64,000 nucleotides of DNA from a bacterium (GTDB taxonomy: Bacteria > Patescibacteriota > Patescibacteriia > UBA9570). Location: positions 44,726 through 108,725 of the forward strand of contig JAUYKW010000018.1 of NCBI GenBank assembly GCA_030698395.1, in the 5' to 3' direction. This document shows positions 1 to 37,582 of this stretch, one piece after another. Within the stretch, counting starts at the first letter, position 1; each line of letters opens with the position of its first letter. A program made the position numbers and the translations under genes. The notes beneath the pieces were generated by a model that was given only the letters and a program-made list of their open reading frames with translations, was not told where the DNA came from and searched no databases.

Positions 1-311
1 TCGGTTACAGTACCAACAGTGGAACGAGGATTATGAGTAGTTGTTTTTTGATCTATAGAGATAGCAGGAGATAGTCCATCGATTCTGTCTACATCTGGTT
101 TATCCATTAAACCTAAAAATTGACGCGCATATGCTGATAAACTTTCTACATATCTACGTTGTCCTTCAGCATAAATTGTATCGAAAGCCAATGAAGATTT
201 ACCAGAACCTGATAAACCTGTAATTACAACTAATTTGTTTCGCGGAATGTCTATTGAGACATTTTTTAAGTTATGAACTCTCGCGTTTTTTATTGAAATC
301 GCATCTTCCAT
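1..311 (-). CDS. uvrA: Excinuclease ABC subunit A (UvrA), N-terminal fragment; gene runs off the left window edge
   Basis: Absent from the ORF track because it is truncated. My reverse-complement translation from ATG 311-309 reads [67 protein letters not shown]. This is the canonical UvrA N-terminus with Walker [10 protein letters not shown]. Confidence 0.9.
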
Positions 312-400
312 GATTTAGAAAAACATGTTTAACTAATTTGAACTCGAGTAGTATATATGAATATTTAATCTACGTCAAGGTGGTATACTAAGAGGAGCTT

Positions 401-1681
401 ATGACTAGCAAGGTAAAAAAACAATTAGCAACATTACCACAAAAGCCAGGAATTTATTTGTTTAAAAATTCTATTGGTAATGTACTTTATGTAGGTAAAG
501 CGAAGTCTTTAAGTAGCCGAGTTCGATCATACTTTAGACAGCATAATGATTTGAATGAAGCTAAACAAATTATGGTACGGCAAATTGTTGATGTAGATTG
601 GATAGAAACAAAAACTGAATCTGATGCCATAATTTTAGAAGATAAGTTGATCAAAGATTATCAACCTAGATTTAATGTATTAGCAAAGGATGATAAAAGT
701 TTTTTGTATATTCATATAACGGATGAGAAGTTTCCTCAGGTACTAGCAGTACGGAGACCAAATCTTCGTAAAGCTGGAATATTTTATGGACCATATCCAT
801 TTGCTCGTAGTATTAGAGAAGTTCTAAAATTATTACATAACATTTTTCCATATCGGACTTGTAAAAATTTACCAAAAAAGGCTTGTTTAGAATATTACAT
901 TTATAAATGTAAAGCACCGTGCATTAATAAGATTTCAGAATCAGATTATCAAGCATTGATATATGATGTGTTAGCTTTTTTTGAAGGTAGAAATACTTTA
1001 GAGCTAGAATCAAGATTGGAAGAAATGATGCAGGTAGCTTCTGAAGATAAAAAGTTCGAAGATGCAGCAAAGTATCGTGATCAGTTAAAAGCAATAAAAA
1101 AGCTGCGTTCATTTCAAAAAACTCCACGTGAGTATTTAACTGATTATTACCAATTTAAGGCTATCGATCCTGATTTAGGCCTTCAACAGCTACAGGATGC
1201 TCTGGTTTTGCCAGCTCAGCCAAAGAGGGTAGAAGTTTATGATATTTCAAATATCCAAGGAACATATGCGGTTGGATCGATGGTGGTGTTTATTGATGGA
1301 TTGCCAGCTAGGAGTGAATATCGGAGATTTAAAATTAAAACTGTCCAAGGTGCAGATGATTATAAAAGTTTGCAAGAAGTGGTTAGACGGCGATTAAAAA
1401 GAGATTGGCCAAAACCAGATTTAGCTATCATGGATGGAGGTAAGGGGCAATTAAATGCTGTAAAACATTTTTGGCAAGATCATGACGTATCAGTTGTTGC
1501 TTTAGCCAAGAAAAGAGAAGAGCTATTTCTACCTGATCAAGCGATACCAATTACAATGGAAGCTGGTAGTCAGGGATTATTTCTAATTCAAAGAATGCGT
1601 GATGAAGCGCATCGTTTTGCCATCACTTATTATCGTAAATTGCACTCTAAATCAATGCGAGCTAATACCACTAAAAGCTAG
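401..1681 (+). CDS. uvrC: Excinuclease ABC subunit C (UvrC), short form (426 aa) apparently lacking the C-terminal (HhH)2 domain
   Basis: GIY-YIG N-terminus (GIYLFKN..VLYVGKAKSLSSRVRSYF). UVR motif (FEDAAKYRDQLKAIKKL). RNase H-like endonuclease region (VYDISNIQG..MDGGKGQLN..DEAHRFA). SD AGAGGAG at 391-397. Confidence 0.85.
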   Translation: MTSKVKKQLATLPQKPGIYLFKNSIGNVLYVGKAKSLSSRVRSYFRQHNDLNEAKQIMVRQIVDVDWIETKTESDAIILEDKLIKDYQPRFNVLAKDDKSFLYIHITDEKFPQVLAVRRPNLRKAGIFYGPYPFARSIREVLKLLHNIFPYRTCKNLPKKACLEYYIYKCKAPCINKISESDYQALIYDVLAFFEGRNTLELESRLEEMMQVASEDKKFEDAAKYRDQLKAIKKLRSFQKTPREYLTDYYQFKAIDPDLGLQQLQDALVLPAQPKRVEVYDISNIQGTYAVGSMVVFIDGLPARSEYRRFKIKTVQGADDYKSLQEVVRRRLKRDWPKPDLAIMDGGKGQLNAVKHFWQDHDVSVVALAKKREELFLPDQAIPITMEAGSQGLFLIQRMRDEAHRFAITYYRKLHSKSMRANTTKS

Positions 1682-3044
1682 GGGGAGTAGCTGGTGGAGT
1701 ACCACTTGGTGTTGATGGAATTATTTCCGGAGAATTTGTTGGAGTAGGAGGAATTGGACCTGATGGGGGAATTCCCTGAGTAGGTGCTTGTGGTTGTTGT
1801 GGCAGTGTAGGTTCTAATATTTCAGGGGTAGTAGGAGGATTATCTTGAGTTGGTGGTATAGGTTGTTGAATTGTAGCTGTTTCATCAGCTAGAGTATTTG
1901 CAATCGATGGTTCAGCTTCGAAGGCTGGTGCCATTTCTAAGGAAGCTAAGTCGGTTGCATTAATACCGGTTTGGATTAGTTCAGCATCTGAAATATGAAT
2001 TGCATCTATACCAATTCCAATAACTATGCCATTTTTATCTTGAGAACGATATATTTTTGCATCCGAAGCTAACGAGGCGTTTAATTCTGGTTGTTCTAGA
2101 GTTTTTAATTTGTCTGTAATTGATGAGGGCTCAGTGGTGAGTGTAGATTTAACAGCTGGAGATTCAGTTTTTTGCGGTAGCATGTGCAAGTCTTCTGTTG
2201 TGATGTCAGCATCAGTTACTTCTGTCGGAGAAAAATGTACAGATCCAGTAGCATGTTCAATTAGTAATCCCATTTCGGGTGTGGCATATACTTGAGCACC
2301 GGAAACGACAGTGTTTGCAACTGCCGGATTAGTATCGGAGAATTTTTTATTAAGAATTTCTATAATTTGCTCTGGCGTTAATGACTCTCGCTCTTTCTCG
2401 AGTGGAGTAACAGGCGATTCGGGTGCTTCTTCAATTGGTGAAATAGCTGGTGTGTTCGAAGTTGCTGGAGGAATGGAACCAGATTTATCAATGGTAGGAG
2501 TTGGTTGTTCATCTGTTGAGTTGACTTCAACAGGATGAGGTTTAATAAATTCTAAATCTTTAAAGATGTCTTCACTTTTTTCTGGATCGGTTTTAATTTG
2601 TGTTCGAGCTTCTTGAATTTTCTTTATTTGGTTATTTAGTTTACCCTCATTACTTTCCATGAAGCCGGTTTGTTCAATGAGCTTCTTTAGTTTATCAATT
2701 AAGCCGGTTTGTTCAGAATTAATACTTTCTAATTCAGAGATTAGTTTTTCTTCTGCACTATCCAATTTAGCCAAATAATCGACAGTCGTATCGGATGGTA
2801 CATCTTGAAGGGGTATTACTTGTGGTTTTAGAGATTCTCCAGGATTTTCTACTGGTGTCGATGTTGTCATGGGTTCAGGAGATGTTGTATCAGATTCTGA
2901 AGTAGGTGTTACTGGATTAGTTGTAGCTGAAGCAGTATTCACAAAAGGAAGTGTGATAGCTGGTCCAGACGTTGGAGTAGTTGAATTATCGTTGGGTGTA
3001 CCCATTGGTTGAGGAGGTACTGGATTTGAGGTTGATTCATTCAT
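1671..3044 (-). CDS. Hypothetical Pro/Thr/Ser-rich disordered protein with a central coiled-coil segment
   Basis: ORF-track frame 1671..3083. The 3083 start is TTG, so I prefer ATG at 3044 (MNESTSNPVPP). Low-complexity P/T/S termini flank the heptad-like segment LDSAEEKLISELESINSEQTGLIDKLKKLIEQ. No TM segment or catalytic motif seen. Confidence 0.6.
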   Translation of the reverse strand: MNESTSNPVPPQPMGTPNDNSTTPTSGPAITLPFVNTASATTNPVTPTSESDTTSPEPMTTSTPVENPGESLKPQVIPLQDVPSDTTVDYLAKLDSAEEKLISELESINSEQTGLIDKLKKLIEQTGFMESNEGKLNNQIKKIQEARTQIKTDPEKSEDIFKDLEFIKPHPVEVNSTDEQPTPTIDKSGSIPPATSNTPAISPIEEAPESPVTPLEKERESLTPEQIIEILNKKFSDTNPAVANTVVSGAQVYATPEMGLLIEHATGSVHFSPTEVTDADITTEDLHMLPQKTESPAVKSTLTTEPSSITDKLKTLEQPELNASLASDAKIYRSQDKNGIVIGIGIDAIHISDAELIQTGINATDLASLEMAPAFEAEPSIANTLADETATIQQPIPPTQDNPPTTPEILEPTLPQQPQAPTQGIPPSGPIPPTPTNSPEIIPSTPSGTPPATPPSF

Positions 3045-3104
3045 AATTAATATAATAATAGCATTTTTTTTAAGAAAAATCAAGTTGAAATATTTTAGAA
3101 ATAC

Positions 3105-3129
3105 AAAAAAGTGGAGCGTTAAACCCCAC
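3105..3129 (-). terminator. Candidate intrinsic terminator downstream of the 828-aa gene
   Basis: The minus strand reads GTGGGGTTTAACGCTCCAC followed by TTTTTT. The stem GTGG(G)G/C(T)CCAC spans 3111-3129 and the A-run at 3105-3110 is the T-tract on the minus strand. Confidence 0.55.
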
Positions 3130-3169
3130 TTTTATAATTTGATTTAGTTATTTATTATTTTTTAATGCT

Positions 3170-5656
3170 TTAAACTGTAGCATTTGCATCAGGATGTTTA
3201 AGAGTTGGCAGTTCAGCTGATATTCTATCAACATTCTTTTCAGCTTCAGCATCTCTTGAGGCCTGAGCTATATCTCCGATTTTTCCAAAAGACATATATT
3301 CAGTAGGAAGTTCATCGTTTGCTACTGATTGCAGACCCTCTAAGGCTGTTTGGATATTTAACTGACCTGCATCTGCTAATGCCTCGGATAGTTGTGGTAA
3401 ATTGATATATTCAACCCCTGCATAATTACCTGGTTCGCCAGATAATATGTAAACACCCTGAGCATTTTGTGCAGTTGTGCCTTCTGGTAATCGAATATCA
3501 ATTAATCTTCCTTGTGCTGGCAAATCTACAAGCATGCGACGCAGATTGTCATTACTAGTTGCGAACTTTTTAGCTAAAGCATTTTTAATTTCGCTTACAT
3601 TATGTTCTCTCGTTTTTACTGCTTCAGTTTTTTCCGTTCCAGCTTCTGCATACGCTTTTTCTTCTGCTGCTTCAATCTGTTCAGACATGCGGGAATACTT
3701 ATTGTCTACACTTGGTGTTTGAACTGTTTCATTTCTGGCCGCTATGGAATCTTGAACGGATTTTGGTAAAGGTATACCAGATAAAGTAGCTTCTAGTTCC
3801 CAGGCATTTTCCATATTAGCATTTGCTTCATTACTAGCTTTTGTGGCTATTGATATTTTTTTATCAAGCGTAGCTAAAGCTTTGCGTAGTGCTCTGCCTT
3901 TTAGCGTTTCTGATTTTTCTAAGTTTGCTCTTTCAACAATTAAGTTACTTTCTATTTGTGAAGCTTTAATAAATGTGTTGGCAGCTTCCATAGATGCTTG
4001 AGATGCTTGTTCTATTGCTGCATTATCGGCATCTTCATTTGTTCTTGATAGTGTTTCAACGAGTTCTTGAGAGCCAGCAACATTGGCTTCAGCTTCTTTA
4101 ATACCAGCCTGAGTATCACGACTAATTTTTTCAAATAACTTGGCTCTTCCTTTTTCATCTGTTTTTCCTGCAAGGAAACGTTGATTTACTTCCCCAATCT
4201 TATCTGATCGTGCATCAAGTAAAGTTTTTAACTTCGCTTGTGCTTGTTCTAAACTTTGTTGAGCAGGCTCTAGAGCAGCGGATTTTTCTGCAGGCGTCAT
4301 TTGTTCCATTGGACGCATTGGTGTAATCATATCTTTAGCCAAAGCAGGGCTGTTTATTGTTACATCATATACGCTTTTGTCTGTTGTGAATCTAAAATCT
4401 TGTTTTTGTCTTGGCGAAAGTTTCGATGCACCTAGTGCTGTTTGTTCATATTCATCACGGAGTGCTCTCTGTTCATGTATATCCGATGGTGTTAGAGGAT
4501 TCATTGCCTCTCCATATTTAACTGGAGCTAGACCTTCTCCTTGTTTAAAAAATTCTTGTTCAACATCGTCACCAGCAAGTTCGCTAATGGCTTTTTCTGT
4601 TTGTTTATCTTCTACTTTTTGAATTTCAACTCCAAAATCACCTAAGTTAATAACTAGGCCACGAGCTCCATCAATTCTGCCATCATATTCTTCATTTATT
4701 TTTGCAATTGCCCGTTTAATCTCAGCGTCATTTAGTTTATCTGTATCAATTTCTGCAATTGCGATTGCCTTAGCATCCATAATTTGTTTGAGTTCTTCTT
4801 GAGCATTAGCAAGAGCTTTGGTTTTTTCTGCAGGTGTCATTTCTGGTTTATTAAAGTCCATGCGAGTTCTTGCTCCAGTACCGGATTCACCAACTTTTAT
4901 ACTATACGGGCTAGCTTGGCTTGATGTTGCAGTCTCTGTTCGTTGTAACTTAATACCACCACTAGCTGTGCGCATATAGAATTCATCTGCCATGTCATTG
5001 ACAATACTGGTCATGCCTGAATCTTGCATATGAGACATCTTCCACATGCTTTGGAATAACTTATTTTGATGTTCTGGGTCAGTAGAGGTTGCAATAGCTT
5101 CTCTTAATTTTCCTACAGCTTCTTGAATACGTTGTAGTTTAGTTTCTTGTCTGGTAAATAAACCAACACGTTCTGCTAGGCGTGTTACTTGAGCTCTTAG
5201 TACACTACGTTGCTCATCCATGGCTTCGTGTCGATTGCTAACAATCGTTTCTAATATTTTTAAGCTGTTAACCATGTGCTCTGCGCTAAGTAATCCTTCT
5301 GGTTTTTCAGCTGTAGCTTCTGCATCTTCATTAGGCAAATCTGAATAATCAACATCACTCATAGGTGTTTGGTAATTTCTAGCTTCAGGAATTCTATTAT
5401 AAGTTACCACTCCTTGGTCTTCTGGTTCTCCAATGTGTTGATCTAAATCTAACATTATGTCATCACTTGGGTCGTGGGAAATGTTTGGTAGTTGAGTTCT
5501 ATCTATTGGTGTTGTGGGGGCATTGTTATCTATATTGTCATCACCTGTATCTTCAAAACGTTCTGCGCCAGATAAAGGTAAGCCAGCATTATTTTCTATT
5601 TTTTTGGCTGGTAGATCTCTTTTATTTATTGGGTCTGTTCTTTCTCTTGCAACCAT
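3170..5656 (-). CDS. Hypothetical 828-aa Glu/Ala/Lys-rich coiled-coil protein with internal repeats
   Basis: Long uninterrupted ORF with an acidic disordered N-terminus and extended heptad-like stretches. A repeated MTPAEK-x-ALxxAQ module occurs at aa 272-290 and 452-470. No enzymatic motif, TM segment or signal peptide recognised. Confidence 0.65.
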   Translation of the reverse strand: MVARERTDPINKRDLPAKKIENNAGLPLSGAERFEDTGDDNIDNNAPTTPIDRTQLPNISHDPSDDIMLDLDQHIGEPEDQGVVTYNRIPEARNYQTPMSDVDYSDLPNEDAEATAEKPEGLLSAEHMVNSLKILETIVSNRHEAMDEQRSVLRAQVTRLAERVGLFTRQETKLQRIQEAVGKLREAIATSTDPEHQNKLFQSMWKMSHMQDSGMTSIVNDMADEFYMRTASGGIKLQRTETATSSQASPYSIKVGESGTGARTRMDFNKPEMTPAEKTKALANAQEELKQIMDAKAIAIAEIDTDKLNDAEIKRAIAKINEEYDGRIDGARGLVINLGDFGVEIQKVEDKQTEKAISELAGDDVEQEFFKQGEGLAPVKYGEAMNPLTPSDIHEQRALRDEYEQTALGASKLSPRQKQDFRFTTDKSVYDVTINSPALAKDMITPMRPMEQMTPAEKSAALEPAQQSLEQAQAKLKTLLDARSDKIGEVNQRFLAGKTDEKGRAKLFEKISRDTQAGIKEAEANVAGSQELVETLSRTNEDADNAAIEQASQASMEAANTFIKASQIESNLIVERANLEKSETLKGRALRKALATLDKKISIATKASNEANANMENAWELEATLSGIPLPKSVQDSIAARNETVQTPSVDNKYSRMSEQIEAAEEKAYAEAGTEKTEAVKTREHNVSEIKNALAKKFATSNDNLRRMLVDLPAQGRLIDIRLPEGTTAQNAQGVYILSGEPGNYAGVEYINLPQLSEALADAGQLNIQTALEGLQSVANDELPTEYMSFGKIGDIAQASRDAEAEKNVDRISAELPTLKHPDANATV

Positions 5657-5714
5657 ATATTTGATAGTTAAAGAATAGTGATTTTATTTGAATTTTTTAT
5701 TTTTGATTAATATA

Positions 5715-5742
5715 AGTATAGCAGAAATTTGAATTTTGTCAA
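5715..5742 (-). promoter_or_regulatory. Sigma70-like promoter for the 828-aa gene
   Basis: Minus strand: TTGACA (5742-5737), 16-nt spacer, TATACT (5720-5715). It lies about 55-60 nt upstream of ATG 5656. Confidence 0.5.
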
Positions 5743-5835
5743 GTAAAATAAGGCTTTTTGTATTATTTTTTATGGATTTTAAATGCTTATTACTTATATC
5801 AATTATTAGTAACATATTTGTATGATGATTAGACC

Positions 5836-5864
5836 TTGACAAATTGTAATATATCGGTGATAAT
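5836..5864 (+). promoter_or_regulatory. Near-consensus sigma70 promoter at the left edge of the GC-rich island
   Basis: TTGACA (5836-5841), exactly 17 nt spacer, GATAAT (5859-5864). The context TTAGAC-N-TTGACAA matches the secG promoter context at 11255-11268 in 13 of 14 positions. Confidence 0.65.
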
Positions 5865-6018
5865 GTTCTGTCCTCTTCGTTATGGAGGGGTCTGGTTCTT
5901 ACGGCACTCTATGTCGTTGGCGCCACGCTCTTTTTTACTAGACCGGTTTAGGATAATGCCCTATTCCAAATCGTCGTGCTTTTTCGACAAATCCTTAACT
6001 CACCACAAGGGAGATAAC
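5865..6018 (+). promoter_or_regulatory. Long GC-rich 5' leader / possible cis-regulatory or small RNA element upstream of the island ORF
   Basis: About 150 nt lie between the -10 box and ATG 6019. Pairings seen: CCTC 5872-5875 with GAGG 5885-5888, GGTCT 5889-5893 with AGACC 5940-5944, and GTCG 5973-5976 with CGAC 5985-5988. Palindrome TGGCGCCA 5918-5925 is followed by T6 at 5931-5936. Confidence 0.4.
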
Positions 6019-6987
6019 ATGACTGCGCAAGTCATTCCTTTCCCTAGCGGTGGAAGCCGGTCAGGGAAACAAGATATCTATGCTGAGATTCGGCCAAGCC
6101 AATCTCGGCTACAACAACATCGTCAAACCACAATGCAGGTAATTACGGGGACTGAGTGGACGGAACAATACCTCCACCCCCAGAACGTACGCGTGGAGCT
6201 GCCCCAACGTGGGGATGCAGAGCTCTTCGTGACAGTACACGTTCACATCCCGGCAATTCGTGGCCGGCTCCAGATTGGAGCGCAGGCGCTTGAACCGGGT
6301 AGACGACCCAGTGGTTGGGTGATGGCACAGGTAGAGGTGAGCGATCTTCGGCACCACCTCGTGTATGGACCAAGATACAAGAAGGTTCAGTATACGGTGC
6401 GACATGCCTTGGATGGCACTCACATGACCTTCCGGGTCAAGGTGGATCAATTCCCCTTCGGTCAGGCACAGGTGGTGCTTTGGTGGGTAGGCAAGAACGC
6501 CAACACCGATGGCATTTTCGTGCAGGCCAGGGAGATACCAGCTCTGACCTTGTCGACGAACGACCCTACAAGAACGATCACGCCTACGGGAGCGGTCGAT
6601 CGAACGGGAAAGGTCGTCGATAGCAACGTTGTAGTCGAGACCCACAGGTACGCATCCGGGTTTTTAACCGACTTCATCATCAACCTCCCGCACATGGATG
6701 GACAACAACATCCTGGTGTACCGCGGGTTCTCCCACGGCTGGACAAGGTGAACGTGCAAAAGGTGAACGTGCAAGACGGCACGTTGACGGTGATTGACCA
6801 ACTCACTGGCTCTGCCAAGGTGTACGACCATATCGTCTTTACGTGCGAGCGTTCAGACGAGGCTACACACCTCCGGTTCAGAGTCGAGGGGATGGACGCA
6901 ATTCCTGTCGGGTCCGAAGAGCTGGTCCTAGAATGGAGATCGACGTCTCTGGGTGGTTACTACATCCAGGTGATCGTTGATCGCTGA
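6019..6987 (+). CDS. Orphan 322-aa protein of the GC-rich island; beta-rich, with two tandem homologous halves; function unknown
   Basis: ATG 6019 is preceded by SD AAGGGAGA (6007-6014). The frame stays open across the whole island. Other-frame ORFs here are GC-rich shadow ORFs. A repeated motif is visible: THMTFRVKVDQFPFGQAQVVLWWVG versus THLRFRVEGMDAIPVGSEELVLEWRS. Confidence 0.7.
   Translation: MTAQVIPFPSGGSRSGKQDIYAEIRPSQSRLQQHRQTTMQVITGTEWTEQYLHPQNVRVELPQRGDAELFVTVHVHIPAIRGRLQIGAQALEPGRRPSGWVMAQVEVSDLRHHLVYGPRYKKVQYTVRHALDGTHMTFRVKVDQFPFGQAQVVLWWVGKNANTDGIFVQAREIPALTLSTNDPTRTITPTGAVDRTGKVVDSNVVVETHRYASGFLTDFIINLPHMDGQQHPGVPRVLPRLDKVNVQKVNVQDGTLTVIDQLTGSAKVYDHIVFTCERSDEATHLRFRVEGMDAIPVGSEELVLEWRSTSLGGYYIQVIVDR
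6745..6774 (+). repeat. Perfect 15-bp tandem duplication inside the island ORF
   Basis: AAGGTGAACGTGCAA at 6745-6759 is repeated exactly at 6760-6774. It is in frame and gives KVNVQKVNVQ. Confidence 0.95.
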
Positions 6988-6999
6988 AATGTCCAGCAT

Positions 7000-7077
7000 G
7001 GAAGTGAGAGGTACTGCGTACAACGCAGGACTTGAAACGTCGTCGCACATCAACTGCTGACTACCTCTCCATCTTCC
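7000..7077 (+). other. Nested hairpin element immediately 3' of the island ORF
   Basis: Outer stem: GGAAG 7000-7004 with CTTCC 7073-7077, and GAGAGGTA 7006-7013 with TACCTCTC 7062-7069. Inner hairpin: CTGCGT 7014-7019, loop ACA, ACGCAG 7023-7028. No T-tract follows. Confidence 0.6.
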
Positions 7078-7166
7078 CCTTAATCTTATAAATTATGTTT
7101 TAGACTTTTTTGTTTGTAAGTAACACAAAAGTTGAAAGCAGAATTTGTTTCTTTTAGAATCGCTAA

Positions 7167-8093
7167 CTAAGTTATTTTTAAGAGCATTACGAATTGCTCG
7201 AATGCAGAAAAATATTTCTTCGGACGTAATGTTGTATTTTGGTATTCCAACATTACTTCTATCATATAATCATCATGTGTAAACAGAACTACTCGTGATG
7301 GAGAGCTGGTTGTTGTTTCTAACATTAATCCATTTCGTTGGGAGATTTCTGGAATTGATTCAAGAATGTTAGCATTAATATATTCTGGTCTGTATTTTTT
7401 AATCCAATCAAGTGTTGTAACAGTGTCATTTTCTGCTAGTGATATTGTAAGGCTAGCACTTTCTCGATCCTTTGTTTGTAATTTTATTTTGTCTGGACCG
7501 ACTGTATTTACTTCAAAATAGTCTTCATACTCAATCGATAACTCTCCAGCATTAGTATTGAATTGTCTTTCTTGCATTGCTACCGGGTGAGTTATTTTTC
7601 CGTAGGATATATTTTCATCATATGCAGACACCATATTAATATGAGAGCTATATACAACAACTAATACCATAAAACCAATTACAACTAACGCGCAAGCGCT
7701 AAAGAAATGTTCGCCAAAACTTAACTTATTAATTTTAGATTTTTCTTCAATAGTTATTACAGGTGTTTCATTGTCACTCTCAATAGATTCAATGGGTGCA
7801 ACAGAATCGATACTTTCTATCGGTGAAATTGGTTCTAATTCTAATTTTTCAACTATGGACTGTTTTTCTGGAACTGGTTTTGATTTCTTTTGTACTTTTT
7901 TCTTAGCAACAGGTTTCTTAACAACAGTCTTTTTTGTAGTAATTTTTTTAGGTGCTTTTTTAACGGCAATGCTTTTCTTCTTTTTATTAGCTGTAACCTT
8001 TGTTACTTTAGTCGGGGCTTTGGCTTTATTCTCTTTTGCCTTGCTGACTTTAGTATTTTTTGGTTTGCTTATTTTTTTTGTTATTTTTGCCAT
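7167..8093 (-). CDS. Hypothetical bitopic membrane protein with a polycationic Lys-rich N-terminal tail
   Basis: By my count, 31 of the first 77 residues are Lys (AKKxP/KKxV repeats, histone-H1-like). This is followed by a PIESI(D/E)S repeat, one TM helix (FFSACALVVIGFMVLVVVYSS) and a ~160-aa C-terminal domain. Confidence 0.6.
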   Translation of the reverse strand: MAKITKKISKPKNTKVSKAKENKAKAPTKVTKVTANKKKKSIAVKKAPKKITTKKTVVKKPVAKKKVQKKSKPVPEKQSIVEKLELEPISPIESIDSVAPIESIESDNETPVITIEEKSKINKLSFGEHFFSACALVVIGFMVLVVVYSSHINMVSAYDENISYGKITHPVAMQERQFNTNAGELSIEYEDYFEVNTVGPDKIKLQTKDRESASLTISLAENDTVTTLDWIKKYRPEYINANILESIPEISQRNGLMLETTTSSPSRVVLFTHDDYMIEVMLEYQNTTLRPKKYFSAFEQFVMLLKIT

Positions 8094-8138
8094 GGTTTAA
8101 TATTATATTCCTCCAAATAAAAATATATTATAGCGAAG

Positions 8139-10208
8139 CTACATTTTTTCTACAAGTTTTTCTGGAATATCTGCAATAAATCTAGAAGCACTTACAATTT
8201 TTGTAGTACCAAACACAGTTCGCTGATTAGCATAAATAAGATATGCTCGTTCACGGGCGCGGGTTAATGCCACATAGCATAGACGACGCTCTTCCTCCAT
8301 TTCTAGTGGTTGGAATAAACTTCTGGCATGTGGAAATAGCCCTTCTTCCATACCTGCAACGAATACGTTATTGAATTCTAAACCTTTAGCAGCGTGTACA
8401 GTCATCATAGTGACTGCATTGGTGCTTTCGTCAACATCATCTTGATCTGAAATGAGAGCAACTTCTTCTAAGAAAGAGTTGATGCCAGCTTGACCAGGTA
8501 AATGATCGAATTTTTTGGTAACTGATTTTAATTCTTCAATATTTTCTATGCGACGTTGATCTTCTGATAGCTTTGGTGAGAATTGATCAGTGTAGCCGGT
8601 TTTGTCTGCAATCATAGTTAGTAAATCAGACGGAGTTTTTTCTGGAGCTGCCGCAATAATTTCTTGCATGGTTTTTTGAAAATTTAAAAAAGCTAGCCTT
8701 TGCTTTTCTCTTAAGGGTGGTAATTTGGTTTCAGATAATTCAACAAAGGTTGCTTCATTATCTCTGCAGGCTTGTTCTATTTTTAGCCAGCTATTTCTGC
8801 CTAATGATCTGGCAGGTATATTATAAATTCGTTCTAAACTTACCCAGTCAGCCGGATTAGCTACTACTTTCATATAAGCGATGAAATCCTTAATTTCTTT
8901 GCGCTCGTAAAATTTAATACCACCGATTAAACGATAAGGGATATTGTATTTCATGAAAGTTTCTTCTAGAGCACGTGATTGAGCATTGGTTCTATATAAA
9001 ATCACATACTCAGCAAGGTTGATATCTCGTTTTTGCCTTTTAATAACTTCTTCTAGAGCTAGATCCACTTTGTAATCTTTGAAAGTTTGACTTTTCATAA
9101 TTTTATCCAAAATGGACTCATCGGCTTCTGCTATTTGAATAGGGGTATATGAAATATCGTCATTGTCTTTTGGTTCGTTATTGTCCGAAAAATCAAATAT
9201 CTCTCTGATAATGAATTCTCCTTCGAGTTGTTCGTTTTCTACCTCTTTTACGACAATTTTATGTCCCCTGTCATTATCCGTCCAAAGAACCTTTTCCTTT
9301 TGAGAGGTATTATATTTAATAACTTCGTTGGCTGCTTCTAAAATACGTTTGGTGGATCGATAATTTTGTTCTAGTAGCACAACAACTGCATCTGGGTAAT
9401 CATCTTCGAAGTCTAGAATATTTTGTAAATTAGCTCCTCGCCATGAGTAGATGGACTGAAAGTCATCTCCTACTACACAGATATTATGATGCTTATCAGC
9501 TAATTGGTGGACTAATGTATATTGAGCATGATTAGTATCTTGATACTCATCAACCAAGATGTATTTAAATGCTGCTTGGTATTTTTTTAATACTTCTGGA
9601 TGTTCCTGAAAAAGTTTTACTGTTAATTGAATCAAATCATCAAAATCAAGTGCATTATTTCGTTGTAATTCCCCTTGATATTTACTATAAACATGAGCAG
9701 CAGTTTTTTCGATAGTTTCACTTGCCTCAGCTTCGTATGCACTAACATCCTTTAAATCATTTTTTGCACTCGATATCATGTATTTAATTATTTTAGGTGC
9801 GATTACTTTAGTATCGTATCCTAAATCTTTCATACATTTTTTAATCAAGGAATCACTATCCGATGCATCGTAGATGACATAATTAGTATCGTATCCTAAG
9901 ATTTCAATTTCTCGTCTTAAAATTTGTACACAAATTGAATGGAATGTACCTACTACCGGTAATTTTTTTACTTTGCCTTTAAGTAACTTTTGTAAGCGAT
10001 CTTTAATTTCTCCAGCAGCTTTGTTTGTGAATGTTACTGCTAAAATATTCCATGGCTTAACATCTTCCGTTGCAATAATGTAAGCAATCCGATGAATTAA
10101 GGTTTTGGTTTTTCCAGAACCAGCTCCAGCTAAAATTAAAAGGGGTCCATTAGTTTGTTGGACCGCTTTGCGTTGTCTATCGTTTAGAGGGGCTAGTAAT
10201 ATATGCAT
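8139..10208 (-). CDS. pcrA: ATP-dependent DNA helicase PcrA/UvrD (SF1)
   Basis: Motifs LAGAGSGKT, VDEYQDTN, QNYRST and VHAAKGLEF. The track start at 10247 is TTG. ATG at 10208 gives the typical N-terminus MHILLAPLNDRQRKAV. Confidence 0.9.
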   Translation of the reverse strand: MHILLAPLNDRQRKAVQQTNGPLLILAGAGSGKTKTLIHRIAYIIATEDVKPWNILAVTFTNKAAGEIKDRLQKLLKGKVKKLPVVGTFHSICVQILRREIEILGYDTNYVIYDASDSDSLIKKCMKDLGYDTKVIAPKIIKYMISSAKNDLKDVSAYEAEASETIEKTAAHVYSKYQGELQRNNALDFDDLIQLTVKLFQEHPEVLKKYQAAFKYILVDEYQDTNHAQYTLVHQLADKHHNICVVGDDFQSIYSWRGANLQNILDFEDDYPDAVVVLLEQNYRSTKRILEAANEVIKYNTSQKEKVLWTDNDRGHKIVVKEVENEQLEGEFIIREIFDFSDNNEPKDNDDISYTPIQIAEADESILDKIMKSQTFKDYKVDLALEEVIKRQKRDINLAEYVILYRTNAQSRALEETFMKYNIPYRLIGGIKFYERKEIKDFIAYMKVVANPADWVSLERIYNIPARSLGRNSWLKIEQACRDNEATFVELSETKLPPLREKQRLAFLNFQKTMQEIIAAAPEKTPSDLLTMIADKTGYTDQFSPKLSEDQRRIENIEELKSVTKKFDHLPGQAGINSFLEEVALISDQDDVDESTNAVTMMTVHAAKGLEFNNVFVAGMEEGLFPHARSLFQPLEMEEERRLCYVALTRARERAYLIYANQRTVFGTTKIVSASRFIADIPEKLVEKM

Positions 10209-11223: not shown

Positions 11224-11261
11224 TATATGTTGACGATGATAAAAGTGCATAATTTTAGACG

Positions 11262-11290
11262 TTGACAATATATAACTAATATTGTAGTAT
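11262..11290 (+). promoter_or_regulatory. Sigma70-like promoter upstream of secG
   Basis: TTGACA (11262-11267), 17-nt spacer ending in TG, TAGTAT (11285-11290). ATG at 11306. Confidence 0.55.
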
Positions 11291-11305
11291 CACTACGTTC
11301 AATTT

Positions 11306-11530
11306 ATGGATCTTAATATCGTAATTTTAATAGCACAGATCATAGTTTCCATTTTAATGGTTGTTGTGATATTGATGCAACAAAAAGGTGCAGGCTTGGG
11401 CTCGGCTTTTGGTGGTGGTGATGCAGTGTACACAACTCGGAGAGGACCAGAAAAGTTTATTTTCAATTCAACTATAATTTTAGCAGTATTATTCCTTGGT
11501 CTAAGTATAGTAGCCTTTTTTCTGCAGTAA
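11306..11530 (+). CDS. secG: Preprotein translocase subunit SecG
   Basis: 74 aa with two TM helices flanking the Gly-rich loop MQQKGAGLGSAFGGG, which is typical of SecG. Confidence 0.8.
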   Translation: MDLNIVILIAQIIVSILMVVVILMQQKGAGLGSAFGGGDAVYTTRRGPEKFIFNSTIILAVLFLGLSIVAFFLQ

Positions 11531-11538
11531 AGTAATTT

Positions 11539-13308
11539 ATGCCAAATAAGAATCGACGAGAGCGGGCAAGCCGACTTGTTGTGGGAGTATCTAAAAAGAA
11601 GATGCCTTCACTAGGACAGCTCCGCTACATTAATAATTTATTATCAGGTAAAGAAAGAATAATCATTGGATTGAGTTTTTTATTTTTTTTCCTGTCTATT
11701 ATTTTTATTGGGTCTTATCGTTATTTATCAACTACAGAAGTGCAACCAAAGATTGGTGGAGAATACATAGAAGCAGTGGTTGGACATCCGCAATATATTA
11801 ATCCAGTATTATCACAGACCAATGACGTTGATTTGGATATTTCTAAATTATTGTATTCTGGATTATTTATTCGGACCAAGGTTCAGCGTCTAGAACCTGA
11901 TTTAGTGAGCGATTATGAAATTTCAGAAGATCAACTAACATATACATTTTATTTACGAAGAGATGCATATTGGCATGATGGTGAGGCGTTAACTGCTAAT
12001 GACGTAATTTTTACAATACAATCAATTCAAGATCCAAATTATCAGAGTCCTTTAGAACCAAGTTTGCGTGGTGTAGAGGTAGTTAAAGTTGATGACTATA
12101 CATTAACTTTAACATTGAAAGAACCATTTGCTCCTTTCTTATCTAGCTTAACATTCGGTATTTTGCCGGAACATATTTGGTTTAATGCCTATAAAGGATC
12201 GGTACAAAATATTACATTGTCAGAATATAATGTGAAACCTATTGGATCCGGACCCTTCGTGTTTGATAAATTAGTAAAAGATAGTGCTGGAGTACTAAAA
12301 TCTTATACAGTAGTGCCATTTGAAAAATATTATGGAAAACATCCATATCTAGAAAGCGTTACTTTTGTTTTTACACCAGACTTAATAAGTGCTACAGAGT
12401 TATTGCGTCGGAAGGAAGTTGATGCTGTAGCTTTTATCTCACCAGATCAAAAGTTAGAGCTACAAAAACAACATAAACAATTACAATATTACAATTTGAA
12501 ATTGCCTCAGTATACAGCCTTATTTTTTAATCAGGAACATTCCGATATATTAGCTAGAGATGAGGTAAGACAAGCAATTGTGTGGGGTGTAGATCGTGAT
12601 TCAATGATAGAACAGGCATTGCAAGGAGATGGAGAGCCAATTTTCACACCAATTTTAAAAGGGTACATTGGACATAATGATGATATTGAAAAATATGGCT
12701 TTGATATTGCTAAGGGAATAGAAATATTGGAAGAAGGTGGCTGGATACTGGAGGATGGTACTGAATTTAGAACTCGTAAGGACGAAACTTTAGAATTTGG
12801 AATTGCTACGGTGAATCAAGATGAATTCTTAAAAACTTTAGAGATTTTAAAAGAGAATTGGACAAAAATGGGCATAAAGGTTACTGTAGATGTGTATGAG
12901 CCGGAGGATATTCATGAGCAAATCATAAAGCCACGTAAATACGAAGCATTACTATTTGGAGAGATTGTTGGTGTTGATCCAGATCCATACGCATTCTGGC
13001 ATTCAACTCAAATGGAGCATCCTGGGTTAGCATTATCTATTTTTTATCAAAAAAATATTGATGATTTGCTAGAAACTGCACGTAAAGAAAGTGATGAAGA
13101 AGAACGACGATTAAAATACTTACATTTCCAGAATATTTTAGCTGAAGAGTTACCGGCAATTTTCCTTTATAATCCATACTATACTTATGCAATCCATCGA
13201 GATGTGCAGGGTGTAGATCCACAATATATTACTACTCCGGCTGATAGATTTGCTGATATATCCAACTGGTATAGAAAAACTGAACGGGTAAAGAATACGG
13301 ACTCCTAA
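11539..13308 (+). CDS. ABC-transporter family-5 (Opp/Dpp-like) solute-binding protein, membrane-anchored
   Basis: 589 aa. A basic N-terminus and TM anchor (IIIGLSFLFFFLSIIFIG) replace a lipobox. SBP_bac_5-like body (YTFYLRRDAYWHDGEALTANDV). No cognate permease or ATPase is adjacent. Confidence 0.7.
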   Translation: MPNKNRRERASRLVVGVSKKKMPSLGQLRYINNLLSGKERIIIGLSFLFFFLSIIFIGSYRYLSTTEVQPKIGGEYIEAVVGHPQYINPVLSQTNDVDLDISKLLYSGLFIRTKVQRLEPDLVSDYEISEDQLTYTFYLRRDAYWHDGEALTANDVIFTIQSIQDPNYQSPLEPSLRGVEVVKVDDYTLTLTLKEPFAPFLSSLTFGILPEHIWFNAYKGSVQNITLSEYNVKPIGSGPFVFDKLVKDSAGVLKSYTVVPFEKYYGKHPYLESVTFVFTPDLISATELLRRKEVDAVAFISPDQKLELQKQHKQLQYYNLKLPQYTALFFNQEHSDILARDEVRQAIVWGVDRDSMIEQALQGDGEPIFTPILKGYIGHNDDIEKYGFDIAKGIEILEEGGWILEDGTEFRTRKDETLEFGIATVNQDEFLKTLEILKENWTKMGIKVTVDVYEPEDIHEQIIKPRKYEALLFGEIVGVDPDPYAFWHSTQMEHPGLALSIFYQKNIDDLLETARKESDEEERRLKYLHFQNILAEELPAIFLYNPYYTYAIHRDVQGVDPQYITTPADRFADISNWYRKTERVKNTDS

Positions 13309-13409: not shown

Positions 13410-15218
13410 ATGATAAAAAAATCAGACAAAACATACAGATCAAATGAAGCAGATACAAGGAAGCGAAAAGCGCGAACACTGCAAAGAACGGTAAGTAAAA
13501 GATCCGGTGGTAGAAAAACATTAAGTATTAATGGTTACCAAGGACCAACAAATAAACGTTCAAAATTACGTGTTGCCATTGTAGGTGGCGCAGAAGAAGT
13601 AGGAAGAAACATGACCATGGTTGAATACGGTAATGATATCGTATTGATTGATTGTGGTTTACAGTTTCCAGAAGAAGATCAACCGGGTATTGATTACATC
13701 ATCCCAAATGTTTCTTATCTAAAGGGACGAGAAAAAGATGTAAAGGGTATTATAATTACTCACGGTCATTATGATCACATTGGTGGTATTCCACATATTT
13801 CACCAGTTCTTCACCATCCTCCAATTTATGGTACGAAATTAACTAATGGAATAATTAACAAGCGTCAGGATGATTTTCCTGATAAGGGTAAATTAGATTT
13901 ACGGGAAATTGATCCTGAGAAATCTATTCAACTTGGTATTTTTAACATCGAATTTTTTCGAGTGAATCATAACATCCCTGATTGCGTTGGTATTATTGTA
14001 CATACACCCGAAGGTACATTAGTTCATACTGGAGATTTTAAATTTGACCTTCAACCAATCATGGATGAAGTTACTGATTTTGCAAAGATTGCAAATATTG
14101 GTAAGCAAGGTGTATTAGCTTTGTTGTCCGATTCTACAAATGCTCCTTCACCAGGACATCAGTTATCTGAAAGTAAAATTGGCTTAACACTTGATGAAAT
14201 ATTTAGTAAGTCTACTGGACGAATTATAGTTGGAACATTTGCTTCGTTGTTAAATCGTTTACAGCAAGTAATCTGGATTTCTGAAAAATACGGTCGTAAA
14301 GTAGTTGTAGAAGGATATAGCATGAAGAGTAATATTGAAATATCTCATAAGTTGGGATATTTGAAAGTTAATCCAAAAACATTAATTTCACCAAAAGAAG
14401 CTTTGAAGTTACCAGATGATAAGGTAACTATCATGTGTACTGGTGCTCAAGGAGAGAGTAATGCTGCTTTGATGCGGATTGCAAATCGTGAGCATAGATT
14501 TTTCAAGATTGCTCAAGGAGATACAATAATCTTTTCTTCTTCAGTTATTCCTGGAAACGAAAGAACAGTACAGCGATTGAAAGATACTCTTTTAAAGGAA
14601 GGTGCACATGTAATTCATTATGAAATGATGGATGTTCATGCTGGTGGTCATGCTAAAGCTGAAGATTTGAAATTACTATTCAGATTGTTAAATCCAAAAT
14701 ACATTATCCCTGTGGAAGGAAATAGATTCTTATTAGAAGCTTCAAAAGGTATAGCGAAAGAGTTGGGTTGGACAGATGAGACCGCCTTAGTAACAACTAA
14801 CGGACAAATCATTCAATTTTCTGGTGGCGAAGGTAAGTTACTGAAAGAAAAAATTCCAACTGATTATGTAATGGTTGATGGATTAGGTGTTGGAGATGTA
14901 CAAGAAATTGTATTACGTGATCGACAGTTAATGAGTGAGGACGGAATGTTTGTGATTATCGTTACTATTAAGAAACAAACTGGAGAATTAATCGGTAGTC
15001 CAGATATTATTTCTCGTGGTTTCGTGTACATGAAAGATGCAAAGCATTTAATTGAGGATGCTCGTAGTCAAGTAAAGAAAATATGTGCTAAGAATAATCC
15101 AGAGAATGCATCAAATCCTATGTGGTTGAAGAATAAGTTGCGAGATGATATGGGTCAGTTCTTATTTCAAAGAATTCAAAGACGACCAATGATTCTGCCA
15201 GTTGTGGTAGAAGTTTAA
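13410..15218 (+). CDS. rnj: Ribonuclease J (metallo-beta-lactamase/beta-CASP) with a basic N-terminal extension
   Basis: HGHYDHIGG motif, beta-CASP region and conserved C-terminal domain. About 50 aa of Lys/Arg-rich sequence lie ahead of LRVAIVGG. Confidence 0.85.
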   Translation: MIKKSDKTYRSNEADTRKRKARTLQRTVSKRSGGRKTLSINGYQGPTNKRSKLRVAIVGGAEEVGRNMTMVEYGNDIVLIDCGLQFPEEDQPGIDYIIPNVSYLKGREKDVKGIIITHGHYDHIGGIPHISPVLHHPPIYGTKLTNGIINKRQDDFPDKGKLDLREIDPEKSIQLGIFNIEFFRVNHNIPDCVGIIVHTPEGTLVHTGDFKFDLQPIMDEVTDFAKIANIGKQGVLALLSDSTNAPSPGHQLSESKIGLTLDEIFSKSTGRIIVGTFASLLNRLQQVIWISEKYGRKVVVEGYSMKSNIEISHKLGYLKVNPKTLISPKEALKLPDDKVTIMCTGAQGESNAALMRIANREHRFFKIAQGDTIIFSSSVIPGNERTVQRLKDTLLKEGAHVIHYEMMDVHAGGHAKAEDLKLLFRLLNPKYIIPVEGNRFLLEASKGIAKELGWTDETALVTTNGQIIQFSGGEGKLLKEKIPTDYVMVDGLGVGDVQEIVLRDRQLMSEDGMFVIIVTIKKQTGELIGSPDIISRGFVYMKDAKHLIEDARSQVKKICAKNNPENASNPMWLKNKLRDDMGQFLFQRIQRRPMILPVVVEV

Positions 15219-24300: not shown

Positions 24301-24996
24301 TTATTTTTTCGCGATAGTGATGATGTTTCTACCTAACTTTTGATCAGTTTTTTCGTTATTTGTAGAGTAGAAGTTGTCAGCATTTTTCCATGATGCATCA
24401 TCTAGCAGTTCATTTAGTTCAGGAATTGTGAAACCATGATAATAACGTTCTGCTAACACTTCTCCTTGTTCGTTTTTCCAAGGAACGATTGCATCACCAT
24501 TTTCGAATTCATTTGGAACATTCGTAAAGTAGTCAGGTAATGCTGGTTGATATAAATTCCAGTTCATCATAAATAAAGAACCTCCCGGTTTAGTAACTCG
24601 GGACATTTCCTGTAAAGCTTGAAGACGATATTTTTTCGATGGAATGTGCTGTAAGCTTGCAATCGCGATAGTGACATTGAACTCCTCATTGGCAAAAGGA
24701 AGTTCCAGCATGGATCCTTGAACTAGTTTAATATCAGGGTATAATTTCTTACCTTCCGTGATTAGTTTTTTTGAGACATCAAGGCCAGTATAGTAACCCT
24801 TGATTTTTTCTATAATTTCCGCTAGTCTGCCATTGCCACAACCAACGTCCAATACTTGATCTTCCGGTTTTACTAACTTATGAAGTAGTTGAAATTCCGG
24901 CCAATCATGTTGACGAGTTTGAGAAAAGTGTGGCGCAATTAAATTATAATCACTTTCAACTTTTTTTATCAATTTTTGAGCAAATGAATCAAGCAT
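24301..24996 (-). CDS. Class I SAM-dependent methyltransferase
   Basis: Motif I VLDVGCGNGR and post-I/II motifs. 231 aa. Confidence 0.75.
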   Translation of the reverse strand: MLDSFAQKLIKKVESDYNLIAPHFSQTRQHDWPEFQLLHKLVKPEDQVLDVGCGNGRLAEIIEKIKGYYTGLDVSKKLITEGKKLYPDIKLVQGSMLELPFANEEFNVTIAIASLQHIPSKKYRLQALQEMSRVTKPGGSLFMMNWNLYQPALPDYFTNVPNEFENGDAIVPWKNEQGEVLAERYYHGFTIPELNELLDDASWKNADNFYSTNNEKTDQKLGRNIITIAKK

Positions 24997-26534
24997 TACG
25001 GGACATTATTAATAAATCTATAAATCGTAGCGTAAGTGACGTTTTAAGTTTGCGGAGTGTAAAAGCAGAGGTGGCAAAAGAGTATGGCATCCATATGCCT
25101 ACTAATGCTAACATATTGTCCGAATACAAAACAATGATAGAGCAGGGCGATGCAGAGGAGGATATGATATTTATGCAGGTATTGCAAGTGAGAAGTATTC
25201 GTACTCTTTCTGGAATTGCTCCTATTACAGTACTTACTAAGCCTTATGCGTGCCCAGGTAAATGCATATATTGTCCATCTGAAGCGAATATGCCCAAGAG
25301 CTATATTGATACTGAGCCAGGTGCTATGCGGGCGTTGGCTTTAAAATTTGATCCTTATGAACAAGTTAGCAAACGTTTAACTGCCTTAGAAAGAAATGGC
25401 CATATTCCAGAAAAGTGTGAGTTGTTAGTTTTGGGTGGCACTTGGTCATCTTATCCGCATGATTATCAAGAGTGGTTCATGAAACGTTGTTATGATGCTT
25501 TTAATGAGGAGGAGTCTGAGACTTTGGCAGAAGCGAAAATTAAAAATGAAACTGCTAAATACCGAGTTATCGGATGTACATTAGAAACTCGCCCGGATTT
25601 TATTACAGAGGAAGAAGTAAAACGCTTACGATGGTTTGGCGCAACTCGAATGCAGATAGGAGTTCAATCTTTAAATAAACATGTATTAGAGCTGAATCGG
25701 AGAGAACAAACGAATGAACAAGTCCAAGTAGCTACGAAGCTTTTAAAAGAGGCAGGAATAAAAATTTCGTATCATATGATGCAAAATTTACCAGGCTCTA
25801 CTCCAGAAGGTGATTTACAGGATATTAAAACAATTTTTTCTGATCCTGGATATCAGCCTGATCATATAAAAGTGTATCCATGTGTAGTGGTTAAGTCTGC
25901 TCCGTTGTATCGACATTGGAAAGCTGGAAGATATAAATCTTATTCCCGAGAAGTGCTTACTGATTTGCTGATCAAGATTAAAAATGAAGTTCCATATTAT
26001 TGTAGGATTGAGCGTTTAGTACGAGATATTCCAGAAAATTCTATTGAAGGTGGAAATACCGTTACAAATCTACGACAAATGATGCAAGATAAGGGCGCAC
26101 AGTGTAATTGCATTCGTTGTCGAGAACCGCGCGCTGATACAACAGGAATAGAAGATGCAAAAATGTATGTTGATGAATACGAATCTGCTGACGGTGTTGA
26201 ATATTTTATTTCATTAGAAAATGATGATCGGACAAAGTTATTTGGCTTCGTGCGATTACGTTTACAAGATCGAGAACAACATTGGCTGGAAGAGTTGCAA
26301 GATTGTGCAATTATTCGAGAGTTGCACGTGTATGGTCAGTTGGTTCCAGTGGCAGCAAAAGGTAAGGCAGTTCAACACAAGGGCTTCGGTCGTAAGTTGA
26401 TGGTTGCCGCAGAAAAGATTGCTCAAGAACAAGGTGCTAAAAAAATAGCAGTAATTGCCGGAGTTGGAGTGAGAAAGTATTATGAAAAATTGGGTTATCA
26501 GTTAGATCAGGAATACATGATAAAATCACTTTAG
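24984..26534 (+). CDS. elp3: Elp3-like radical SAM / GNAT acetyltransferase (tRNA wobble-uridine modification family)
   Basis: Radical SAM CxxxCxxC (CPGKCIYCP) plus a C-terminal GNAT motif QHKGFGRKLM. The track start at 24930 is GTG. ATG at 24984 keeps the conserved N-terminus. Confidence 0.75.
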   Translation: MNQALRDIINKSINRSVSDVLSLRSVKAEVAKEYGIHMPTNANILSEYKTMIEQGDAEEDMIFMQVLQVRSIRTLSGIAPITVLTKPYACPGKCIYCPSEANMPKSYIDTEPGAMRALALKFDPYEQVSKRLTALERNGHIPEKCELLVLGGTWSSYPHDYQEWFMKRCYDAFNEEESETLAEAKIKNETAKYRVIGCTLETRPDFITEEEVKRLRWFGATRMQIGVQSLNKHVLELNRREQTNEQVQVATKLLKEAGIKISYHMMQNLPGSTPEGDLQDIKTIFSDPGYQPDHIKVYPCVVVKSAPLYRHWKAGRYKSYSREVLTDLLIKIKNEVPYYCRIERLVRDIPENSIEGGNTVTNLRQMMQDKGAQCNCIRCREPRADTTGIEDAKMYVDEYESADGVEYFISLENDDRTKLFGFVRLRLQDREQHWLEELQDCAIIRELHVYGQLVPVAAKGKAVQHKGFGRKLMVAAEKIAQEQGAKKIAVIAGVGVRKYYEKLGYQLDQEYMIKSL

Positions 26535-37550: not shown

Positions 37551-37582
37551 ATTAAATTTTTATCCATTACTTCCATATTCTA

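Follow-up and report, generated by a model that had tools for sequence, protein, structure and literature searches.

Stem-loops at the very 5' end of the transcript stabilise several bacterial messenger RNAs (mRNAs), for instance in the 5' untranslated region (5' UTR) of E. coli ompA and in the leaders of B. subtilis aprE and ermC. 5'-end helices elsewhere in bacteria likewise shield mRNA from 5'-end-dependent decay by RNase J or RNase E. Structured ends are also found in the insertion sequence (IS) IS200, whose left end carries a terminator hairpin blocking incoming transcription and a stem-loop hiding the ribosome-binding site of tnpA, followed by a small open reading frame (ORF) and a structured right end. 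GC-rich intergenic islands reportedly mark structured non-coding RNAs in AT-rich genomes, which is said to be the logic of the GC-rich intergenic region (GC-IGR) search of the Breaker laboratory. To our knowledge, few regulators are known in the Patescibacteria (candidate phyla radiation), whose genomes are tiny, and hardly any regulatory RNAs have been described there. Here we analysed positions 5836-6018 of a 64-kb stretch of Patescibacteria DNA (the window), which precede a 322-amino-acid (aa) ORF in a GC-rich island. We show, by comparing loci, that this segment comprises the predicted promoter and the 5' UTR of a unit that is conserved and has been inherited vertically. With a probability of roughly 55%, the 5' UTR serves mRNA stability and translational control of a lineage-specific RNA/protein unit that occupies one position in Kerfeldbacteria-like Patescibacteria.

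The genes around the island are ordinary chromosomal genes, encoding UvrC, UvrD, a Ser/Thr kinase, SBP_5 and RNase J; next to the unit lie DNA-repair genes and lineage-specific proteins to which no domain could be assigned. The best UvrD matches with a named source belong to Patescibacteria, several being Candidatus Kerfeldbacteria, and the closest relatives are 64-68% identical (BLASTP); a scan of GTDB with UvrD returned distant bacteria only, with best-segment identities mostly of 36-44%. Across the related loci, with UvrD 65-69% identical, gene order is kept (RNase J, SBP_5, SecG, UvrD, a '308-aa' gene, the unit, one or two lineage-specific genes, UvrC, UvrA). In seven distinct relatives the unit lies between the '308-aa' gene and its next neighbour and is encoded on the other strand from UvrD. 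These relatives are L047, L048 (L049 is near-identical), L050, L052, L055, L057 and L058; the L050 sequence equals L053 and, over their shared overlap, L054. Their units span 0.6-0.8 kb at 50-60% GC, compared with 39-45% for the locus, and hold ORFs of 138-192 aa. In a further relative, L059 (UvrD 63% identical), the flanking genes are adjacent and the unit is missing. All units have in common a TTGACA promoter, a helix at the 5' end, a short sequence word, a Shine-Dalgarno sequence (SD), an ATG or GTG start, the ORF and a structured tail. The TTGACA -35 element, with a spacer of 17-18 nt, is found in all seven relatives having sequence there.

Similarity among the island ORFs tracks the UvrD groups, with protein identities of 84, 61 and 57% within L050/L052/L057 and 36% for L048/L058, which indicates that the unit diverged together with its hosts. 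The window ORF is 20-31% identical to the other seven in pairwise comparison over aligned columns, the same range as other between-group pairs. The family proteins have only a faint pattern in common, made up of the invariant residues G12, L152 and W154 and of hhLxW near the C-terminus. Since protein similarity is this weak, orthology of the window unit rests on its position and its non-coding features.

Within the window the island (~5870-7079, ~55% GC vs 35% for the whole window) is the sole stretch exceeding 46% GC for more than 200 nt, and its right edge is sharp (CATCTTCCCC/TTAATC, at 7079/7080). It contains a 147-nt leader, the ORF at 6019-6987 and a 92-nt tail. The leader is not GC-rich on its own account: it forms the 5' margin of an island of 1.2 kb. 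Start codon 6019 is backed by its SD and by N-terminal alignment with the family. Gene callers differ on this ORF, which is 221 aa at NCBI (ATG 6322, the last 221 aa only), 374 aa in Logan (ATG 5863) and 322 aa from ATG 6019. We rejected an in-frame N-terminal extension from 5836 or 5863; GC at the first codon position (GC1) is 0.34-0.41 there and the translation is not protein-like. GC by codon position is 0.63/0.41/0.62 in the ORF, and third-position GC (GC3) in the host is ~0.22. The protein has an internal duplication (residues 120-170 and 269-318, E = 7e-7), which explains why it is about twice as long as its counterparts in the relatives. AlphaFold predicts it from the single sequence as all-beta with low confidence (predicted local distance difference test score 36).

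Positions 5836-6018 do hold a strong predicted promoter and, after it, a leader of unusual length. Direct inspection of the sequence recovered every motif that a first-pass annotation of this DNA had listed, and its description of a consensus promoter and an unusually long leader was borne out. Promoter sites matching at least 11 of 12 consensus positions number only six on both strands of the window, four of them intergenic. This one is a match of 11/12 whose TTGACA is kept in the homologous leaders. It lies 155 nt from its start codon, vs 11-59 nt for the other three intergenic sites (counted on the right strand). The gap at 5657-6018 (362 nt) is the longest of the 52 gaps in the window (median 5.5 nt), and several further intergenic gaps of 250-350 nt are present at 11224-11538, 37551-37814, 39384-39643, 40307-40660 and 58945-59199. 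The same annotation called the leader structured. The homologous leaders agree with this, all eight folding better than their shuffles (z = -1.6 to -3.7), but the window leader is only moderately better than chance: its minimum free energy is -42.3 kcal/mol (z = -2.23, 4 of 200 shuffles as good), and a repeat of the test gave z = -2.16 with 8 of 300 shuffles as good.

The predicted transcripts begin with GUCC or GUUCC, and in all eight leaders a helix, here called P1, sets in 6 nt past the -10 hexamer, the start site being predicted rather than mapped. The first 1-3 nt are paired in every leader (individual folds, z = -2.3 to -4.1). The helix is a short hairpin in the window, L055, L047, L048 and L058, and in L050, L052 and L057 it is the closing helix of a 55-nt domain. 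Its arms occur as CCUCUUC/GGAGGGG, CCCCC/GGGGG, CCCCAUA/UGUGGGG and UUCCGGA/UCCGGAA. In a hand-fitted alignment of the arms (six distinct rows), 93% of the cells pair and 5 of 9 pairs change on both sides, a score that 0 of 500 shuffles reached with the arms so fitted. A pairing of CCTC 5872-5875 with GAGG 5885-5888, noticed earlier in the window, proved to be part of this common helix. By analogy, P1 may resemble the 5' stabilisers described above: it begins 0-2 nt from the predicted first nucleotide, is kept through sequence change, and the host has RNase J, the gene for which lies a few kb from the island (13410-15218). Unlike in those systems, the helix is one part of a longer leader with a conserved word, and the whole mRNA is GC-rich and folded.

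Downstream of P1, the sequence CCCTATTCC occurs exactly once in the island of every relative except L048/L049, which have TTCCATTCC and TTCTATTCC. It was found once among 50 other fetched loci, and within the window the word recurs only at 25399 when up to one mismatch is allowed. Motif-like words in L059 and in the UvrC gene of L050 were judged to be chance matches. In all eight leaders (G)CCCUAUUCC opens a tract that reaches the SD and is 27-65 nt long, with 35-53% C and 0-12% G, and the 5' half of each leader is G-rich. The 13-mer GTGCTTTTTCGAC is also present, identical, in the leader of L047 (~8241-8253, minus strand), where it lies upstream of the word, the opposite side compared with the window. 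It covers the pairing of GTCG 5973-5976 with CGAC 5985-5988 that had been noted earlier and that we confirmed.

At the 3' end of the leader the SD and start codon are predicted to be occluded. In the window the strand running from CACCAC through AAGGGAGA to AUGACU pairs with codons 2-12, and the probability that the AUG is unpaired is 0.04. This SD/AUG hairpin, whose boundaries were picked after the fold was seen, has a folding energy of -22.7 kcal/mol; its z is -4.3 when dinucleotide shuffles are the control and -2.9 when synonymous shuffles are. A long-range pairing (5940-5949/6053-6062) extends it, and the segment 5871-6130 has z = -3.97. Pyrimidines early in the ORF also pair with the SD in L047, L048, L055 and L057, according to their minimum-energy folds.

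The far end of the transcript is also structured. The branched element at 7000-7077 has a folding energy of -31.3 kcal/mol (z = -5.05), and individual folds of L047, L050 and L057 yield the same architecture (L052 has the same closing-stem sequence), with reduced versions in L048, L058 and L055 and z = -2.5 to -5.7 overall. The closing stem always begins at or just past the stop codon and pairs a purine-rich, SD-like strand with a CCUC-rich strand. It exists in five versions: GAGAGGUA/UACCUCUC in the window, GGAGGGUAG/CUACCCUUC in L050, L052 and L057, AGGAGGUGG/CCACCUCCU in L055, GAGGCAGG/CCUGCCUC in L048 and L058, and AGGGG/CCCCU in L047. With hand-fitted arms, pairing holds in all 48 cells, and both partners differ between versions in 8 of the 9 pairs. 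Between L050 and L052 the 3' tail is 92-97% identical, compared with 81-91% for UvrD, 81-91% for the island ORF and 73-81% for the leader. A 75-aa ORF over the L050 tail was rejected, as it is frameshifted in L052 and L057 (a hairpin of 13 nt vs 12 nt). That the frame is broken while the nucleotides are conserved indicates conservation at the RNA level. Beyond the 3' element, L050 has a ~150-nt pyrimidine-rich stretch (~13110-13250, minus strand), CUUC/CCUC-rich and present likewise in L052, at 92-97% identity.

We compared the rates of change of the island with those of UvrD. GC3 is 0.58-0.64 in all eight island ORFs, vs 0.25-0.44 in UvrD. Between L050 and L052, the island has a synonymous divergence (dS) of 0.22 and a nonsynonymous divergence (dN) of 0.11; the corresponding UvrD values are 1.10 and 0.022. 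The other three pairs go in the same direction, and dN/dS of the island is 0.46-0.76 across the four pairs. Relative to UvrD, the island changes 2-5 times more slowly at synonymous sites and 5-10 times faster in amino acids. When mean local folding energy is compared with that of synonymous shuffles, z ranges from -1.8 to -5.1 across the eight island ORFs, vs -0.1 to -1.8 in UvrD control segments. Together these sequence comparisons show purifying selection on the non-coding ends of the unit, with composition and predicted folding maintained. GC-richness appears to be kept by selection on RNA folding or synonymous sites rather than to reflect recent foreign origin. The RNA ends, the folding and the GC content outlast saturation of the synonymous sites of UvrD, and over the same span the protein becomes unrecognisable. 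Conserved RNA ends next to an unrecognisable protein suggest either that the RNA itself is functional or that the protein is engaged in an arms race and tightly controlled after transcription.

Most likely the leader works once transcription is under way, and would do so through the 5' helix, the word with its C-rich tract, and the SD hairpin. A stem-loop at the first transcribed nucleotide would leave essentially no single-stranded 5' end and could protect the transcript end. The C-rich, largely unpaired tract opening with CCCUAUUCC may be a landing or standby site for a trans-acting factor or the ribosome. Pairing of the SD and start codon with the first codons would, if the predicted fold forms, keep translation low until the hairpin opens. 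The unit offers a concrete object for covariance-model searches, and for the study of how RNase J-dependent organisms protect 5' ends and occlude translation.

Several observations weigh against a 5' UTR devoted to mRNA stability and translational control. The transcription start at ~5870 is predicted from the promoter. The arms of P1 were extracted from each sequence's own fold, and unrelated hairpins would also score well by this procedure, so that the argument rests on position, namely the same place of the transcript in every genome. Compensatory change, which a 5'-terminal stabiliser would be expected to show, is found in P1 with hand-fitted arms. MAFFT and RNAalifold gave no usable global alignment or consensus structure for the leaders or the 3' tails. 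The leaders do not fold alike around the word: L050, L052 and L047 place it in a hairpin loop, and in the window, L055 and L058 it base-pairs with G-runs that lie upstream. We also looked for a conserved partner that would pair with CCCUAUUCC, the SD and the 3' element being among the candidates, and found no consistent target. With neither a common fold nor a consistent partner, the word is better accounted for by a sequence-specific contact with protein, RNA or ribosome than by a role in structure. In L050 and L052 the minimum-energy fold shows no SD occlusion, in L058 the SD pairs with the upstream leader instead of the ORF, and such occlusion is common in GC-rich RNA. Once the choice of boundaries is corrected for, by comparison with synonymous shuffles of the whole transcript, no single hairpin of the window stands out; only local stability, taken as a mean, does. 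Recent exchange of the unit between related genomes could account for part of the low dS. Similarity of the window protein to a profile of the seven others is weak (hhalign E = 0.058), and the comparison covers eight sequences (six distinct ones for P1) from three or four lineages.

The most serious competitor, which we regard as rather unlikely, is that the unit makes a dual-function or mainly non-coding RNA (a scaffold, a decoy or part of a ribonucleoprotein), the ORF being secondary or diversifying and the leader simply one RNA end. Synonymous change is slow, all eight ORFs are over-folded, and GC3 is ~0.6 in hosts at 0.25-0.44, while the 3' tail, at 92-97%, is the best-conserved stretch of the L050/L052 locus. 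L048 and L058, whose UvrD proteins are 89% identical, have island proteins only 36% identical, yet their P1 and 3' elements are near-identical. Nevertheless, an intact ORF with SD and start codon is kept in all eight genomes, its GC1 > GC3 > GC2 order is a coding pattern, dN/dS is below 1 in 4 of 4 pairs, and a weak common protein pattern persists (G12, L152, W154). A stronger form, likewise rather unlikely, is a hitherto undescribed class of Patescibacteria RNA unit, namely a vertically inherited, lastingly GC-rich transcript whose fold is selected along its full length, from the 5' helix and the CCCUAUUCC word through the synonymous sites of the ORF to a branched 3' element in which an SD-like strand pairs with an anti-SD-like one, the RNA acting itself and also encoding a small, rapidly diversifying beta-rich protein; a folded RNA as the main product would explain both the synonymous constraint and the conserved ends. 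Like GC-IGR islands, the locus is a sharply bounded GC-rich stretch in an AT-rich genome and a transcription unit with conserved structured ends. Unlike them, it has a conserved ORF, a coding-type GC pattern and dN/dS below 1, and matches no described RNA family. A search of the literature on non-coding RNA in Kerfeldbacteria and on GC-rich structured RNA in Patescibacteria found nothing relevant.

Less probable still is a conditional intrinsic terminator, formed by a hairpin followed by U6 in the middle of the leader. On this account a riboswitch or attenuator would yield a ~65-nt RNA or the full mRNA or, in a variant, a separate small RNA would end at 5936. The first-pass annotation had found the order of parts typical of riboswitches and attenuators, and like such elements the locus has a long structured leader between promoter and SD, with a hairpin and U6 in this genome. 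The promoter, P1, the hairpin and U6 follow in the right order, and the hairpin at 5885-5933 has a folding energy of -20.4 kcal/mol (z = -4.0), its boundaries having been picked after the fold was seen. L047 likewise has a hairpin followed, 4 nt on, by U5, within the common 13-mer. The evidence on the other side is broader. Runs of at least four U are present in the window and L047 only, 6 of the 8 leaders having none, and by-eye comparison with L055, the best-aligning leader, places the U-tract in a ~30-nt window-specific stretch without a counterpart there. The GGTCT 5889-5893/AGACC 5940-5944 pairing, the palindrome TGGCGCCA (5918-5925) and CTC+T6 (5928-5936) are all present as first described, but neither that pairing, the palindrome nor the hairpin with U6 is conserved in the homologues. 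Upstream of the hairpin there are only ~15-19 nt, too few to house an aptamer, and P1 (about 20 nt) is the sole element there; P1 can coexist with the long hairpin in the minimum-energy fold, hence the two are not an antiterminator/terminator pair, and no conserved pair of that kind was found. The pairs adjoining the U-tract (G-U, G-C, U-G) make a weak stem base, a terminator scan of the window did not call the site, and the clear terminators of the host differ, being simple hairpins of A-tract, GC stem and T-tract. The downstream gene belongs to no class related to metabolism or transport.

Covariance-model searches gave no support to a riboswitch either. Neither the window nor four homologous loci matched Rfam 15 at the gathering score, and at E values up to 10 the window and the homologous islands gave spurious small nucleolar RNA and microRNA matches only; no transfer RNA gene or Rfam family was found across the window. 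We rejected a metabolite riboswitch, for which a conserved multi-helix core would be expected; across the eight leaders there is none, a single near-invariant word of 9-10 nt being all that is kept, and length and fold vary in the middle of the leader. The suggestion of a type III toxin-antitoxin module also failed, as 5600-7400 contains no tandem repeats and the ORF has no PADLOC or Pfam match. The hairpin with U6 is a local addition in this genome, causing at most some premature termination, and not a conserved mechanism.

Passive foreign DNA, from a recent moron-like transfer or an assembly chimera in which the leader would be a donor intergenic region and the hairpin with U6 the terminator of the donor gene upstream of it, is very improbable: GC3 of 0.62 vs 0.22, the clean edge at 7079/7080, an ORF without homologue and other GC-rich foreign-looking genes in relatives (L048 12100-12890; L059 5602-5919) speak for it, but an independent assembly is identical, seven relatives hold the unit at the same site and diverging with UvrD, the promoter, P1 and word are conserved, and there are no terminal repeats, target duplication, mobility genes or phage, plasmid, viral or metagenome matches. 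We initially favoured this explanation and dropped it after the independent assembly and the syntenic homologues were found. The Logan assembly of run SRR13727534 covers window positions 1-9659 at 100% identity without gaps, both island junctions included, which argues against an artefact of a single assembler. As expected of a recent island the composition is atypical, but the unit is present in close relatives and no donor or mobility signature was seen. The window protein matched only itself among 5.8e9 proteins (word-indexed search) and 1.84e9 cluster representatives (exhaustive HMMER). Neither it nor the family had a match in Pfam, PHROGs, NCBIfam, PADLOC or PDB. Likewise, the locus had no match in IMG/VR, JGI metagenomes, INPHARED phages or PLSDB plasmids, and exact patterns of the leader DNA were not found in metagenome and viral collections. 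A GC-rich island with an ORF lacking homologues, in an AT-rich metagenome-assembled genome, need not mean recent transfer or a chimera.

The resemblance to IS200 lies in the order of parts, the window having a hairpin with U-tract, an SD-occluding hairpin, an ORF and a structured 3' end within 0.7-1.2 kb. Unlike IS200, none of the eight proteins has a Y1/HUH transposase domain (Pfam, NCBIfam, PHROG), and an HVH triplet is present in the window protein only. The unit is found as one copy per locus at a fixed syntenic site and diverges with its host, and conservation does not extend to its U-tract hairpin. We also considered terminal repeats (inverted or direct), an integron attC site and an IS element, and dropped them because no repeats were found.

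Table 1. Predicted features in and next to the GC-rich island, in window coordinates.
Feature	Positions	Strand	Details
Divergent promoter of the 828-aa gene	5715-5742	-	TTGACA, 16-nt spacer, TATACT, upstream TG; 11/12
Sigma-70-type promoter	5836-5864	+	TTGACA 5836-5841, 17-nt spacer, GATAAT 5859-5864; score 11/12
P1 stem-loop	5870-5892	+	CCUCUUC 5872-5878 paired with GGAGGGG 5884-5890; -9.4 kcal/mol, z = -3.3
Imperfect hairpin with U6	5885-5936	+	U6 5931-5936; alternative register 5889-5929; window-specific
Near-invariant word GCCCUAUUCC	5958-5967	+	Recurs in the leaders of relatives
C-rich, G-poor half-leader	5959-6006	+	C 35%, G 8%; from the word to the SD
13-mer GTGCTTTTTCGAC	5976-5988	+	Contains the GTCG 5973-5976/CGAC 5985-5988 hairpin
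SD/AUG hairpin	6001-6052	+	SD AAGGGAGA 6007-6014 and AUG 6019-6021 buried against codons 6-12
ORF, 322 aa	6019-6987	+	Strong SD, single long open frame
Branched 3' element	7000-7077	+	Three hairpins enclosed by the stems GGAAG/CUUCC and GAGAGGUA/UACCUCUC

The promoter of the island gene stands back to back with that of an 828-aa gene, for which our search found no relatives. The two -35 regions form a perfect 9-nt inverted repeat, TTTGTCAAG and CTTGACAAA, and these are the only two copies of the 9-mer in the window. The inverted repeat may mean that the island gene and the divergent 828-aa gene are controlled together. Two more promoter-like sites of 11/12 overlie listed start codons, one at TTG 48722 and one in the overlap (24930-24996) of the ORFs 24301-24996 (-) and 24930-26534 (+); at both sites the true starts probably lie further downstream.

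Other GC-rich sequences were noticed in the relatives. L048 (12100-12890, plus strand), and likewise L049, has a second, unrelated GC-rich island of up to 68% GC directly after UvrD, with a Tat/lipoprotein-like ORF starting at TTG (TRRDLFALGG...LLPGCAN) and a ~350-nt leader with CCCATTCC-like words. L059 carries upstream of UvrD a GC-rich 105-aa ORF (5602-5919, minus strand) that by eye only resembles a ribbon-helix-helix (CopG-like) protein. GC-rich small genes seem to recur in the clade.

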